A stretch of DNA of 64,000 nt from Psilocybe cubensis (taxonomy: Eukaryota). The notes beneath the pieces were generated by a model. It was not told the DNA's origin, searched no databases, and saw only the letters and a program-made list of their open reading frames with translations. Every line of letters starts with the position of its first letter. Position 1 is the first letter of the stretch. Made by a program: the position numbers and the translations under genes. Shown in pieces: positions 26,911 through 35,059 of this stretch. The stretch is taken from assembly GCA_017499595.2 (NCBI GenBank), contig CM039001.1:2108001-2172000 (forward strand), read 5' to 3'.

Positions 26911-27494
26911 TATTTCCCTCTCACTATTCCTTCTTTATTGACCCAACTATCCACAAGCTAAACCTAAATCGTCCCACATTAACGTCTACATACAGCAAGA
27001 AACCCTCGGTGGTCATTTATATACAGTGGCACGATACATTTACATTCATGTTTGTTCAGTATTTTGTTTTGTACCATTTTCTAGCATCTTATCCCCCATT
27101 TCATTGCCTGTAAATACCTACGTAGGATTCATTCGTTTATCTACAACTTCCCTTCGATCTACCATTTGACAGATACGACTTGAATTTTTATTTAATTGCG
27201 GCCAGCATGCTTGCTCAAAATAAAAATTTGAAGACATTGGCCATCGGAAATAGAATTATTAATATAAAAACAATTAAATATAATATTAATAATCAATGAG
27301 TAAATTTGTAAATCTAAAATGATTGTTTATTTGTGTTTATAATGATTATCTAATCAAGTGCTTAGGCCTTAGGTCTTACACGGAATTGACACGTCTCAAA
27401 GTGTCGACTGCTAGAACTCAAAGCGAATCTTGACATTATTATACTATTATACTGATAGCAGACAAGCATCTTGACCTCATCCTAGTGGCACAAC

Positions 27495-27923
27495 ATGCTA
27501 AAATCCATTACCATTCTCCCTCTTTTCTTTCTACTGAGTCTTCAATTAGTCTCAGCTCAGTTCAACTTCTTCGAAAACATGTGGGGTCAACAGCAGCAAC
27601 ACCAACAACACCAACAACGAGCAGGGTCGTCTCAATGGGCAGCTTATGCAGATAGTGGTACGGGAAGAATTCCGGAATGATCAATACAACACTAATTTCT
27701 GCAATTGCTAGTTTCTTGTTCACAATATCTTTGCCCGGATACTTTAGACTGTGTCGTCAGACCATCGGATTGCCCGTGTCCCAACGCGGAAGACGTAAAA
27801 TGTGTCGTTCCGGACATGGAAGGGTCTCTGTATGATGCAACGGTCATCTGTACACGAGGACAAGATGGTTGTGCAGAGGTGGAGAAGCTCTTGAAGAAAG
27901 GCTCTAAACCGAAGAAGAAGTAG
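27495..27923 (+). CDS. LCL2: Long chronological lifespan protein 2 (Lcl2)-like small secreted/ER protein, 2 exons
   Basis: Signal peptide, [37 protein letters not shown] Cys pattern; intron about 27658-27711. Confidence 0.82.
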
Positions 27924-28605
27924 ATCTTGAATGGAGAACTTCAATGCTATTAATGGCTGTGAAAATAAGATCTGATTATTATACTTACAGAATCTACTTA
28001 ACCGAAGTGCGCACCGCAAAGCTGCAGAGAGGCGTCCATTGTTGCATGTTGCACACCATTACGTGGTCCCATGAATTTATGGATCAAATGTCTATTCATT
28101 GGGCAGTGTGATTGCCATCCTCCTGATTATACACCTCTTGGCTTTTACAATCTCACATGGCTTTCCCAGGCAGATCGTGAGGCAACGGCAAAGAATGCCA
28201 TGAAGACGGCCCGATGCTCACCTTGGTCGTCTGCTTCCCAGAATGTCCTTTTTGCTCAGGCTGAGGTTTACCGTCATATTGATGCTTTTCCTATTTTTTT
28301 TTGACATCCAGCCCACTGCATTTTTTACTTACCGTTAGCAATCCGATTACTTAAAAGGCTTTTAATTAACCTTGATTTTCCAGATATGCATTGGAGGTTT
28401 GTTGTAAGCTGACGGTCTAATTTTAGGCATTACGTATGGCGGGACCTCCGGCAAACTGTGTGTGCGTACTCCCTCTTTTCTTATTAGAATTCACATTATG
28501 TCATGCTATTCTCAGACTTAAGTATCCCATCTGATACTATCCTCGTCTTTATAAACACAAAGGTGTGAACTCACTGGCGAGTAAGGTCCTCAATTTCGCA
28601 TAACA

Positions 28606-29566
28606 ATGCTCTTCACCTTAGTATCTGCGGCTTTGTTGCTTCCCTGGTGCTTTGGTCAAACATCTACCCCCGACTTAAACAATGTAACAACAGCATTTTC
28701 TTCGGCCCACATCGTACCGGATGTTGTACAGTCCTTCAATCCTATGGATGGCGTAAACATTTCTTTTACAGACCCTGTCTCTGCACAAACAGTAGACGTC
28801 GTACCGGGGATCTTGTTGACAATGCAACGTATGAATAATGGCCTTGCAAAATCTGGCAATACTTGATCTATTTTATTTTTTAATCAGAAACCTCTATGCC
28901 TCCGGACCTCACATTGGTTACTACAACATCTGACTCCAATAGCAGTGCCATGTTTGTTGTGGTTATTGTGGACCCCGATGCGCCTACTCCCCAGAATCCC
29001 AACGTATCAGAATTTCTTCATTTCCTGGGAGGAGATTTCACTGCCGGTTCTACATCCGGTCTTTTATCTAACAATTCACCAGCACTCGCGGAGTTCTTCC
29101 CCCCTACCCCTCCCGTTGGATCTGACCCACATAGGTTAGTGATACCTCTGAACCTTGCAATCATTTATTTACATTCGATAGATATGTGCTCCTCGTTTTT
29201 GATCAGCCCGACAGTTTTGACGTGAATGGGCCAACGTTAGTCAATGCCACAACCCCCAGGACAAATTTCAGTATCTCCGACTTTGCTCAAGCAATCAATC
29301 TGGGAGATGCCATTGCTGGTAACTTTTTCCTTGTTGGTCCCATGAACGCATCAGCGTCAGCGACACCTTCAGCTCCACCATCTACTCCTTCGATACCCTT
29401 GGCAAGTTCGCCTACTTCCGGAGACACTTTGGCGTCGCCCACACCTACATCGAGTGCCACATCGCCAAACACATCTCCTTCTTCGAAGGCTATGAAAGCA
29501 AGATCCGCCATTTCACCATTTACCGCCGCCATCGTTGGGGTGGCTGCATTAGTATTTCAATTGTGA
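28606..29566 (+). CDS. Secreted, probably GPI-anchored PEBP (phosphatidylethanolamine-binding) family protein, 3 exons
   Basis: Signal peptide; IVDPDAPTPQNP, FLHFLG, PPTPPVGSDPHRYVLLVF; S/T/P stalk and hydrophobic C-terminus AAIVGVAALVFQL. Confidence 0.85.
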
Positions 29567-29988
29567 TTCGACACTGCTCCGTTACCTCGAAAATTCAATT
29601 TGTACCGTTTCGAGTGTCTGTATAACATGGACATAAAATAACAACGTTGAAAACCACGAATGAGGACTGCAAGACAATGTTTTGTAGTAATTGCATGGGG
29701 CAAAGAAGTTGAACCGTCCCAAACTACTTGTACCTGAGTCCTGCCAATGTGCTCCATGGGTAACAGATACAGGATTCCTTGGGAAAATCATATCATTGTG
29801 TGACTCCTTAGTGAAAGTTGTTCAATCAGCTGAAAAATTATTGTCACCGGTCGGCGGTTAGCAACGGCGTTAATTACCCAATAATTATAGTTAAGTTGAT
29901 AGGTATATGTAGTAAGTGGAGGCAGCTGACAAATATAGACAAGCAACCGTCTCGGTGTTCGTCCAGCCTCAAAAGTGAAACTACCATC

Positions 29989-30469
29989 ATGGCCCTTGCA
30001 CGACCAACAGTAAGATATTCTTCCGACTCAAATTGCAAACGCTATCTGACTTACTCATGAGTAGACCAAACTCCCCCCTGGAGCCAACCGAATCCTCTTT
30101 GTCAAGAATTTGAACTACCAGATCACAGGAGAGGACCTGTACGATTTGTTCGGGCGCTATGGCAGCATCCGTCAAATCCGAATAGGAAATGAACAAAAAA
30201 CTAAAGGCACGGCATTTGTCGTATACGATGATGTTATGGATGTAATTATCACTTGGATCGTCGTTTTCTGCGCGTTACGTCTCATTTCAGGGTTTTAGGC
30301 TAAAAACGCGCTCGACCATCTGAATGGTTTCCACTTACAAGAACGGTATATCGTTGTGTTGTATCATATGCCTGCGAAGCAAGATGCTGCAGCTGCAAAA
30401 GCTGATCTTGCCAGGAGAGAGGAAGAGCTTGCTCAATTGAAGAAAAAGCACGATATTGGGGATGCTTAA
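29989..30469 (+). CDS. SF3B6: U2 snRNP SF3b p14 (SF3B6/SF3B14a) branch-site RRM protein, 3 exons
   Basis: [25 protein letters not shown]...[14 protein letters not shown]...[34 protein letters not shown]; stop TAA 30467-30469. Confidence 0.95.
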
Positions 30470-30686
30470 AGGTAAGCTGTTCGATGTTGTGTTTATATAC
30501 AACAATTCTCTCATAGACTACAGTTCGGGACTCACAGACTTTTCTTCTACTGTACAACAACACTGATGCTCCTGGTACTCCCAGTCTATATATTCTGTTA
30601 TTAATTTCATCGCGGATGTTACTTTTACTATGAGTCTCATTCTTCTTCTGCTCCAGGCGTTCTGGTTTCGCGTTTTGTCGACCCCA

Positions 30687-31180
30687 TCAAGCCTTCCCGC
30701 TGCATGCAGGACATTCCTTATCGATATGTGGGGAGTATTGTTGTGGATATTGCCGACTGGTATGTAATTAGATCTGGCGTACAATAATTGTTTAAATGAC
30801 ATACTATTGCCAACATGTCTGAGTGCAACGTGGAGGCACGCAGTCCTTTGGATGTGCGGGACTGAATTTGCAATTGACAAGATTGCATTTTATCTTCGGG
30901 AAATTTAGAGTTTGGCAATCACTGTTCACGCGATTGACGTACCTCTTCATCGGGCTGTACAATAATTCGATATGAGCGAAGAACGATAGTTCATGGGTTC
31001 CAGTCTTACCATTGTGACCCCATGGTTGCATCTAGACGAGCAGACATAAATTATAGGGCAAGGTTGATGCTTTCATAGAATCACTGACTTTGTGTAGACA
31101 TTACGGACTCTGGTTCCGTAAAGGTTGGTAAAGTAAATAGTTTTAAATAATTCGTCTACTCACCTTCGCCAATAGCACAT
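30687..31180 (-). CDS. 76-aa Cys/His-rich microprotein encoded by six exons (not recovered by the ORF track)
   Basis: Exons 31180-31164, 31109-31089, 31031-31010, 30954-30943, 30893-30805, 30756-30687 (17+21+22+12+89+70=231 nt); five GT-AG introns of 48-57 nt; MCYWRRVRNVYTKCNHGVTMPDEEIKCNLVNCKFSPAHPKDCVPPRCTQTCWQYRQYPQQYSPHIDKECPACSGKA*. Confidence 0.88.
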
Positions 31181-31228
31181 GATGATAATAGAAGTGGGGG
31201 ATGAAGAGCTGAGGGAAAACATCAATCA

Positions 31229-31235
31229 TTTTATA
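31229..31235 (-). promoter_or_regulatory. Putative TATA box of the Cys-rich microprotein gene
   Basis: TATAAAA on the minus strand about 50 nt upstream of ATG 31180. Confidence 0.45.
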
Positions 31236-32189
31236 GGTAACAGGGAGAACCAGGATCTCACTTCTGCTCAACCGCCGCATGCAGTTTGAAATTTCGGAGT
31301 GGTGTCTACCCGCGATCTCGTACAAAGCTGTTAACTACCTCTGAATCTTGTTCTTTTGAGATCTCACTATGCCTCATGCAACTCTGTTTAGGTTTGGTCC
31401 CGTCCTGGCATATAGTCGGGGGAATTGAAGGCTAATCCCTAAGTTCAACCCTCCCAGAGCTCGCTAGTAAAAACACTTGTTCTGTTCAAAAGGAGTGTTA
31501 CGACATTGTGTGTGCACCCCCCACAGATATATTGACGTAAGGCTGAAGCTATTAACCCGCCACGCGCATCTCTATGGTGAATGCGATCGAAAATCTCGCA
31601 TACACATCTAGGCTCACCAAGGAAGGCACGTCGCTTACCGATCTGTGTCTCTCTGCCTTTGTTTGAGCTTTGCAGTCCATTTTAAAAGCCTATAGACTGT
31701 ACCTGGCGTAACTGGTAGTTATAGGAGCCAACTGCCCGGCAGTCTCTGGCAGCCTTCATCTGCCTTGATTACTACTCTGATTTCCAATAATATCAAAAGA
31801 TATTATTGTCTGTACATATCTGCAACAGGAGATTGAGGTCCAGAACGCTCCTTCAGAGTCCGTCTCAAACCATCTGCATCTCATAGTTCGGTTATGAGGA
31901 AACAACAGGCATCGGCGCAGTATGCCTTTGCGCTTTTCATGGTTCCGGTTTAGTTGGGCCGGAAGTATATCTAGACTGAACATCGTTGCCCCTCGGCAAT
32001 ACCGAAGTTTTCATAATGCTTGGACGTTACTTTGCCGCTTACCTGCTTACTTCTTCCAGTTGAAGTCAATCGGAAAATCTAACATCTGGAATACATCTAC
32101 CGTTCTTGGCATACGCGAAAATTAACACTTGATCAGTACAGGTGCTAATCCGGTGTAATAGCATATATAATTGGGTGCAGAGAATGAAA

Positions 32190-33140
32190 TCAGACATAAA
32201 TTCATTAAAACACATCATCGCACATGTAAGGACATCGAGTAGAGATTAAAGCTGATGAAAATTCAAGGCCCTTATAGATAAATGGCAGCCTTCCTAAAAA
32301 GCAGCGACGTCCATAATACGCAGGTTTTGTCTATTCTTCCGTCGGCCCTTTAACTTCCAACCTCGACTCCTCAATAGTGCCAGGGCGAACTGGCCCAAAA
32401 TTCTTAAAAGCTGCCAAACAACCGTTTATTTGCAATAGGGTCGGCTGATTTCGAGGAGTTACCTGGAGATACCCGTATGCTATAGCTGCTACTTAGATCC
32501 AAAATGCCTAAATGTTGGCGACAAGTTACAGCGAGGCGCTCATCGGACTCCATCGGCTTGCGCAGCCTACAGGCTACCATACAGGATCGACGACTTGTAC
32601 CGTGGTCCGTTAAACGGATTTGAATCTATCTGAATCTGAACTCACTTTTGGCGATCGTGATCATAGTTTGCCATGCGTTGATAACGTGAGAGGGTACTAC
32701 TTCCGCGTGTGCCAAGGGTCTACCTAGGTCTTCCTCGAGCTTCCTCCAGCTTCATCCACGAGCCTCCGTGACAAACGTACCTTACATGGGAAGTTGACAA
32801 GAACTTACAGAGCCCCAGGAGGTCTAGTCTAGAGTTTGGATTCAACAGCCAATGTCACATGATGAACATAGAACACACGAGGCCATCCCGTTCTTCTGAA
32901 AGCAATTTTTGTCATTAGTACTCTCTAAGTGAAAACAGCCAGCGAATATGCCAAACACACGGGCCACCTAAAAAAAGAAAACACACTATCAGAAAAGCAA
33001 AATAGTTATTGACGTCGCGCGAACCTCACGTGGGAGATAGACTTCCAGGGAAAAGGCTAAATATTGATATTGTATATAAAACCTACCTCAAGGCCACTAA
33101 GTACCGAAAAGATATTAAGGGGAAGGGGGAATCACGCGTC
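32190..33140 (-). other. Probable multiply spliced transcript without a convincing ORF (lncRNA or unresolved micro-exon gene)
   Basis: Minus-strand donors GTAGGT 33086, GTAAGT 32808, GTACGT 32780, GTGAGT 32645, GTAACT 32462; acceptors at 32968, 32896 (branch TACTAAT) and 32411; upstream CCAATGACGCGTGA then a pyrimidine tract. Confidence 0.35.
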
Positions 33141-33422
33141 ATTGGCGAGTGTTTGGTAAAACGTGTCAATAGTAGACTGCCTCGGAATCACAGAACACCA
33201 AAGAAGGAGAAAACTAGAAAAAGGCGTGGATCCAATGTTTGTCTTCTAGTTCAAGTTGTGTCAAAGTTGTTTCGGATATAGTGTCAAGATATCAAGATTT
33301 GAGCAAAGGAGTCAACTTTTACATCCTAAAACAATGGCTTAATAACTGCAGAATTAATAGAATACACGAAGTGGTATCGCAGTCCTGTTCAGTAAGAATA
33401 GGTCATGCCTATCGAGTATAAA

Positions 33423-35059
<1,637 letters not shown>

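Follow-up and report, generated by a model that had tools for sequence, protein, structure and literature searches.

A hidden six-exon gene of Psilocybe cubensis and the unnamed Agaricomycete family of putative metal-binding microproteins to which it belongs

Can a gene whose first four exons each span just 12 to 22 bases be real and, if so, what would its very small product do? The question is raised by a 64-kb window of Psilocybe cubensis DNA (contig CM039001.1 of assembly GCA_017499595.2, positions 2,108,001 to 2,172,000; the window denotes this whole stretch of 64,000 nucleotides, and all coordinates below are its own), in which a preliminary description made from the letters alone had placed a hidden six-exon gene for a Cys/His-rich microprotein. 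The first part can be answered plainly: the six-exon minus-strand model at 30687-31180 is correct, and the gene is real and expressed. Joining of the exons by script gave 231 nt and a product of 76 amino acids with nine Cys and three His, and the exon and intron sizes first described (introns of 54, 57, 55, 49 and 48 nt, each bounded by GT..AG and having a good fungal donor) were reproduced throughout. The existence of the gene, as first claimed, was borne out by this joining, by spliced RNA and by homologues. The transcript evidence comes from two runs of one study (X1 and X2, 18-20 million letters, their label as RNA being a guess); runs X3-X5, of a second study on the same organism, are DNA-like. 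Comparisons were made with four metagenome loci (L001-L004), these being the 4 of 33 pattern matches in a metagenome scan that were confirmed as loci, and with public homologue models (P numbers). The parts of the gene are as follows.

31229-31235, minus strand: TATAAAA, 49-55 nt 5' of the ATG, a candidate promoter element, lying where the preliminary description had noted it (about 50 nt upstream).
31164-31180, minus strand: exon 1 (17 nt), with the ATG, codons 1-5 and 2 nt, and A at position -3; L002 and L003 share this 17-nt exon.
31110-31163, minus strand: intron 1 (54 nt), GTGAGT..AG, phase 2, placed by homologue peptide continuity and conserved exon sizes.
31089-31109, minus strand: exon 2 (21 nt), placed by sequence join, homologue alignment and size conservation.
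31032-31088, minus strand: intron 2 (57 nt), GTCAGT..AG, phase 2; L001 is contiguous across the exon 2/3 junction, and public model P0022 reads through there.
31010-31031, minus strand: exon 3 (22 nt), carrying Cys14-x-His16; an X1 joint reaches 31010.
30955-31009, minus strand: intron 3 (55 nt), GTAAGA..AG, phase 0; an X1 contig (depth 109) links 31010 to exon 4.
30943-30954, minus strand: exon 4, a 12-nt microexon coding Pro-Asp-Glu-Glu, with letters inside the X1 joint and a counterpart in L002 and L003, recognizable also in L004.
30894-30942, minus strand: intron 4 (49 nt), GTACGT..AG, phase 0, within the X1 joint; public model P0013 reads through there.
30805-30893, minus strand: exon 5 (89 nt), coding Cys27, Cys32, His38, Cys42, Cys47 and Cys51, with a family tblastn match and cover by X1 and X2 contigs.
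30757-30804, minus strand: intron 5 (48 nt), GTATGT..AG, phase 2 within codon 54; X1 and X2 both show its joint, which X3 and X4 lack.
30687-30756, minus strand: coding part of exon 6 (70 nt), with Cys69-Pro-x-Cys72 and the stop at 30687-30689.

Contigs of the runs were compared over 27000-34500. Those of X1 and X2 omit stretches of 47-62 nt ending in GT..AG or CT..AC, and X3 and X4 each retain the stretch unbroken; because their contigs skip GT..AG introns that the DNA-like runs keep, X1 and X2 represent spliced transcripts. Within the microprotein gene, the joint from 30756 to 30805, which skips 48 nt bounded by CT..AC, is predicted intron 5 and was seen in both X1 and X2. In one X1 contig, 30895 is linked to 31010 across ten letters, which read in reverse complement as the opening ten bases of exon 4; the final two bases of this exon, AG, are ambiguous with the intron end in this joint. 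X1 thereby confirms introns 3 and 4 as well as the 12-nt exon. Spliced RNA had been called for at all five junctions, and this call was answered for introns 3 and 4 (X1) and 5 (X1 and X2), introns 1 and 2 being unseen among the joints listed.

This last result counts against the model, there being no spliced joint for introns 1 and 2 among the X1 and X2 joints listed, as do an X1 contig (depth 35.7) that includes base 31082 in intron 2, indicating unspliced or intron-retaining RNA, and the origin of all RNA evidence in one study. The X1 block over 31082 stops 30 letters off; if it ends at 31111, this would be the intron 1 acceptor plus two ambiguous bases, and intron 1 would have been removed from an RNA in which intron 2 was retained. 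Splicing of introns 1 and 2 in this organism is suggested by homology and conserved exon sizes, and it is supported by the homologue alignment, since conservation of the part encoded by exons 1-4 equals that of the remainder. Stretches with no RNA cover (31769-33023 in both runs, 31016-31768 in X2) were not counted as evidence, and depths were not used for ranking genes. Relative to the window, X3 and X4 differ at six single bases and three small indels within 7.5 kb (28136-33789); the differences at 31082 (intron 2) and 31123 (intron 1) are intronic, and none falls in the microprotein exons.

The start codon at 31180 is inferred. A start at Met1 is supported by the invariance of Met1-Cys2 in the family alignment (A3, comprising 61 of 69 full-length sequences after eight near-duplicate or aberrant ones were dropped; 61/61) and by the lack of conservation of the N-terminal extensions carried by 11 of the 37 public models. 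A second in-frame ATG, at 31222, lies 14 codons 5' of the first; it is 7 nt past the TATA box and is preceded by an in-frame stop. Further 5' than the TATA box, X1 includes a low-depth contig at 31262-31525 (333 letters, the first 66 of which were placed elsewhere). This contig could reflect an alternative start or a separate weak transcript.

Very short exons leave a free-hand modeller many degrees of freedom, and the retention of intron 2 in some RNA might be taken in the same sense, that is, for a chance construction upon a non-coding locus. Such an explanation is refuted by the three of five junctions seen in RNA, by 37 homologues with E values down to 4e-40 that cover the microexon-coded N-terminus, by identical exon sizes in L002 and L003, and by the absence of comparable chains from shuffled sequence; the probability left to it is negligible. 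The last of these results came from a search for an ATG followed by exons of 17, 21, 22 and 12 nt separated by GT..AG introns of 40-90 nt with no in-frame stop: on the minus strand of the window one chain fits, the microprotein gene, and in each of five window shuffles none does. As the exon architecture was set after the fact, this count is taken as supportive only. When 13 family members were compared with the 64-kb window by tblastn, this locus was the sole match, and within 27000-34500 there was no match to Rfam.

The architecture itself is conserved. L002 and L003 are genomic, and in both the first exons measure exactly 17, 21, 22 and 12 nt and code the family N-terminus, with the 12-nt exon bordered by AG and GT. 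This arrangement could be assessed in three genomic loci (the window, L002 and L003) and is present in each; L004 does not have it. The position of the last intron varies: in L002 and L003 it is in phase 1 after codon 61, eight codons further on than in the window, where it is in phase 2 after codon 53, and the read-through models of Boletales terminate at this alternative site after codon 61. In L001, a cDNA-like contig from a related species, exons 2-6 follow one another without introns. At 430-460 of this contig, 4 nt are missing from the exon 1/2 junction and the reading frame is lost, which could represent an alternative splice form or an assembly error. L004 has recognizable exons 2-4 at 330-710, beside a p14 gene; a Met-Cys first exon is missing, as is the first part of exon 5, which codes Cys27 and Cys32, and this locus may be a decayed copy.

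As sequence the gene is already known, its family being present in public databases as unnamed hypothetical proteins. A search with the peptide matched 37 of 37 candidates, with E values of 4e-40 to 2e-13 and 57-86% identity; the best homologue (E 4.1e-40) is 84% identical over 97% of the query. All 37 are annotated as 'hypothetical' or 'uncharacterized' and derive from mushroom-forming fungi. A profile built from 28 of these hits (A2, nine aberrant models being excluded) was compared with 1.84 billion representative sequences; 142 matched at E<=1e-3, of which 92 reached E<=1e-10 and 3 reached E<=1e-30. The resemblance to small fungal 'MC...C.H...C..C' hypothetical proteins stated in the preliminary description was thus borne out, with 37 hits and 142 clusters, and homologues that conserve the Cys/His pattern, which it had called for, are widespread in Agaricomycetes, with 11 positions invariant or nearly so. 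The likeness to this family is complete in full-length identity (57-86%), in the 11 Cys/His positions, in microexon architecture where the sequence is genomic, and in the p14 neighbour; examples include the 76-residue models P0002 (Gymnopilus junonius) and P0007 (Plicaturopsis crispa), and Pleurotus ostreatus is found in the P0041 cluster. With no substantial difference from these, the window gene is one further member. A conserved core protein and a divergent, fast-evolving paralogue (approximately 30-40% identity) coexist in several species.

Annotation of the family is poor. Nine of the 37 public homologue models are clean, 11 have only unconserved N-terminal extensions, and 17 are defective, with the microexon-coded part missing, an in-frame insertion or an aberrant C-terminus. 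The insertions and aberrant tails lie at the sites of introns 2, 4 and 5 and thereby mark those introns indirectly in other species. Gene finders often misannotate the gene because four of its exons span just 12 to 22 bases. In a profile search conducted without a length limit, the domain was also found in a few longer proteins (e.g., one of 462 aa with the domain at its very end); these look like merged gene models, and no recurrent fusion partner was found among them.

The family has been seen so far only in Agaricomycetes. When 30 representative clusters were looked up, 28 had an organism name and all 28 belong to this class, as confirmed against a taxonomy for three and as we take it for the others; the named clusters extend to Cantharellales, Auriculariales, Gomphales, Hymenochaetales, Russulales and Agaricales. 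In a separate profile search, 48 of 49 matches were named, and 48 of these 48 were from Agaricomycetes. Genomes of Dacrymycetes, Pucciniomycotina and Ustilaginomycotina are represented in the same database, since a search with p14, the product of the neighbouring gene, returned them; none of the three groups occurs among the named matches of the microprotein family. Against a strict restriction it must be said that absence elsewhere was judged from predicted proteins, and it is unproven because gene callers often miss the gene. A protein atlas returned solely the family's own Basidiomycota clusters, with 378, 53 and 53 members and no Pfam assignment. No paper on the family was found in the literature searched, including by locus tags, a search that did not extend to supplementary tables.

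The residues that have been conserved bear on the second part of the question. In A3, M1, C2, C27, C32, S35, H38, C69 and C72 are invariant (61/61), and C14 (60/61), H16 (59/61), C42 (57/61), C47 (58/61) and C51 (59/61) are nearly so; the exceptions include His16 to Cys, His16 to Asp, Cys42 to His and Cys51 to His. The third His of the product, H64, is kept in only 17 of 61 sequences, and as it is not conserved the ligand set comprises nine Cys and two His; of the nine Cys and three His counted in the preliminary description, the nine Cys and two of the His are thus conserved as metal ligands would be. The window product has the Met-Cys start and all 11 of these Cys/His positions, with Asn at residue 15, where most members have Gly. 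Conserved non-ligand residues include F34-S35, W52-Q-Y54, P58 and Y61. The protein has a calculated mass of 8.9 kDa, a pI of 8.8, eight aromatic residues and nine Cys among 76 (12%), and its N-terminus, hydrophilic and basic, lacks a hydrophobic leader, the GRAVY of the first 25 residues being -0.76. This agrees with the preliminary description, which had noted no signal peptide: no signal-peptide-like N-terminus was recognized, as judged from GRAVY and the basic invariant start rather than from a dedicated predictor.

The nine Cys and two His are probably metal ligands rather than disulfide partners, as indicated by the interchange of Cys and His, the odd number of Cys (nine) and the leaderless hydrophilic basic N-terminus; exchange of Cys for His would preserve a metal ligand and not a disulfide. 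The same properties bear on the proposal that the protein is a peptide rich in disulfides, which would leave the cell by an unconventional route and act in defence or signalling. Small size, richness in Cys and fast-evolving paralogues in several species would suit such a peptide, but a signal-peptide-like start is lacking, the Cys number is odd, Cys and His are swapped at conserved positions, and the core orthologue is 57-86% identical across orders, unlike typical secreted effectors; the chance that the protein serves in this manner appears very slim. Identity as a secreted small cysteine-rich protein was likewise rejected, given the lack of a signal-peptide-like start (GRAVY -0.76; no dedicated predictor was used). 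The twin CX9C and twin CX3C proteins of the mitochondrial intermembrane space have two CX9C or two CX3C motifs in a helix-turn-helix. Membership among these was also rejected, as the spacings between successive positions are x11, x, x10, x4, x5, x3, x4, x3, x17 and x2, with a single CX3C.

Searches for a known domain or fold returned little. A Pfam scan of six members gave a single hit, which at 14.1 bits fell short of the gathering cut-off of 25, and among the 61 members of A3 no Pfam family was hit in more than three (best E 0.0096). No solved structure was matched by sequence (best E 0.92). An AlphaFold2 model was made for P0002, the Gymnopilus junonius protein that is 80% identical to the window product; its pLDDT was 61 with A2 and 89.7 with A3, and it has strands at 3-11, 17-19, 23-25 and 56-61 and helices at 46-50 and 70-73. 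The predicted fold is compact, with an N-terminal beta-hairpin, a third strand and two short helices, and C14-x-H16 is read as lying in the hairpin turn and C69-P-x-C72 at a helix start, in a zinc-knuckle-like manner. With Foldseek, no PDB entry matched this model at E<=0.001 (best E 1.0, TM no higher than 0.34), and a viral structure library gave no match at E<=0.001; within these limits the predicted fold is without a match in the PDB and viral libraries searched. A C-x-H turn in a beta-hairpin and C-P-x-C at a helix start are the usual half-sites of zinc knuckles, treble clefs and zinc ribbons. The model appears to share both, whereas the microprotein differs from these domains in having one C-x2-C pair, 11 ligands in a 72-residue unit and no Pfam or PDB match.

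Given the conserved ligands and the predicted model, it is rather probable that the product is an intracellular structural zinc-binding microprotein with a conserved surface that binds a partner. The small intron-packed gene would be transcribed from the minus strand and spliced as in the six-exon model, and translation from the ATG at 31180 would yield a basic 8.9-kDa protein retained inside the cell, the slowly evolving core member of the unnamed family. This protein would fold around two or three zinc ions by way of C2, C14, H16, C27, C32, H38, C42, C47, C51, C69 and C72, the zinc sites being probably structural, while the equally conserved non-ligand surface (F34-S35, W52-Q-Y54, P58 and Y61) and the basic first strand would bind a conserved partner, either protein or nucleic acid. 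We infer the zinc binding, the fold and the binding or adaptor role alike. Several points weigh against this proposal: no known zinc-finger family matches by sequence or fold; eleven ligands cannot be divided evenly into four-ligand sites, and both the assignment of ligands to sites and the zinc stoichiometry are guesses; the same residues would fit iron-sulfur or copper; and the support for the gene is at the level of RNA and conservation, the protein product being predicted.

An iron-sulfur cluster or other redox-active centre, which would make the protein an electron-transfer or redox/iron-sensing module, could draw on the mixed Cys and His ligands, including H38-x3-C42-x4-C47-x3-C51, and on hits to the NADH-G 4Fe-4S region (PF10588). 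However, these hits are weak and confined to 2 of 61 members (best E 0.012), and 11 ligands across 70 residues, the C-x-H knuckle and the C-P-x-C helix cap resemble several zinc sites more, leaving such a centre unlikely, if a reading to keep in mind. In metallothioneins the content of Cys, arranged in C-x-C and C-x-x-C clusters, is very high, and aromatic residues are scarce or absent. Buffering or chaperoning of Cu, Zn or Cd, as by a metallothionein, would be in keeping with a small, Cys-rich, cytosolic-looking and probably metal-binding protein; the microprotein differs in its 12% Cys (9/76), its eight aromatic residues, its single C-x-x-C pair, its ordered and confidently predicted fold and its conserved non-ligand surface, in which S35, F34, W52, Q53 and Y54 are strongly conserved though they would not be ligands, and no Pfam metallothionein was hit among the family members scanned. 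A role of this kind is considered quite improbable.

The invariant Cys2 invites another explanation. In plants and animals, proteins that start with Met-Cys are used for turnover through the N-terminal Cys or for lipid anchoring. Removal of Met from the microprotein could in the same way expose Cys2 for oxidation and regulated turnover or for a lipid membrane anchor, and basic and aromatic residues come after the Met1-Cys2 start, which all 61 sequences share. On the other hand, Cys2 is conserved alongside ten other ligands and stands directly before the predicted strand at 3-11, which suits a metal ligand. A substrate of the Cys branch of the Arg/N-degron pathway would need, besides the Met-Cys start that the microprotein has, an N-terminal cysteine oxidase in the organism; among fungi, such oxidases are reported from chytrids only (PMC10092093). 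It is very unlikely that this role accounts for the protein, and Cys2 could act both as a metal ligand and as an N-terminal Cys at once.

The surroundings of the gene are occupied by the following genes, identified from spliced transcripts and protein matches, the last of them lying upstream of it.

27411-28108, plus strand: small-protein gene with a spliced transcript and one intron, coding approximately 120 aa that begin like a signal peptide and include several Cys and a stretch rich in Gln and His.
28333-29506, plus strand: PEBP-family gene (PF01161), in which RNA confirms five introns; the C-terminal tail of its product is rich in Ser, Thr and Pro.
29931-30597 (approximate), plus strand: SF3B6/p14 gene, convergent with the microprotein gene, with its coding end at about 30467-30469 and a 3' UTR intron at 30470-30521.
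33119-34856 and beyond, minus strand: eIF4A-III gene (DDX48/Fal1-type), 5' of the microprotein gene on the same strand.

The 'gene desert' of the preliminary description is thus only apparent: PEBP, SF3B6/p14 and eIF4A-III genes with many short exons surround the microprotein gene, and it is their short exons that gave the region its empty look. The 2.2 kb said to separate the gene from anything upstream shrinks to a spacer of approximately 1.9 kb to the 3' end of the eIF4A-III gene, in which no tandem repeats were found (31200-33200), and the complex regulation read from it is without support as a family trait, the spacer being only about 500 nt in L002. The upstream gene was assigned by comparison with the PDB, where eIF4A-III gave E 3e-136 and eIF4A-I E 4e-108. 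It has at least six introns within the part examined and exons of 24 nt (33507-33530) and 40 nt (33588-33627), so that microexons are not peculiar to the microprotein gene; five introns per 231 coding bases is nevertheless the densest arrangement in the neighbourhood. The p14 assignment is supported by the p14 open reading frame of L001, which matches PDB 2f9d (E 5e-38). An RNA joint from 30469 to 30522 represents the p14 3' UTR intron, and the p14 transcript extends at least to 30597. The p14 stop lies 217 nt from that of the microprotein gene, and the 3' ends of the two genes therefore probably overlap; L001, a transcript-like contig that holds both genes spliced and in opposite sense, suggests such an overlap in that species as well.

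A convergent p14 gene adjoins the microprotein gene in the window and in all four metagenome loci, and an eIF4A-III gene lies upstream in L002 and is absent within 1.25 kb in L003. The conserved neighbours and the intron density are what bring to mind a zinc-cluster microprotein, specific to Agaricomycetes and with a fold unseen in solved structures, that works with the splicing or exon-junction machinery. PHF5A/Rds3 (SF3b14b) is a small three-zinc protein that serves as a structural adaptor in the SF3b splicing complex. By analogy only, the microprotein would resemble it in being very small, basic and intracellular with several Cys-ligated zinc ions, and its gene adjoins that of the SF3b subunit p14; it differs in that no PHF5 Pfam hit was obtained in 6 or in 61 members, the ligand spacing is other, and no PDB fold matched. 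A predicted complex of p14 (A4) with the microprotein (A3) scored 0.02 against a mark of 0.34, in a prediction that did not use the alignments, and this score speaks neither for nor against an association. A link of the protein to splicing is held to be highly improbable; were it true, the output of the five-intron gene would itself depend on splicing capacity and could report it.

Identity of 57-86% across mushroom orders, in a family for which no domain model, structural relative or paper was found, marks a gap in fungal biology, and one that is cheap to close as the protein has just 76 residues. The family also offers a clean test case for annotation, since 17 of 37 models omit the microexons or run through an intron and another 11 have unconserved extensions, and the number of small microexon-rich genes in intron-rich fungi is probably underestimated. 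Should the predicted fold and metal sites prove true, this microprotein would represent a new small zinc-binding architecture.
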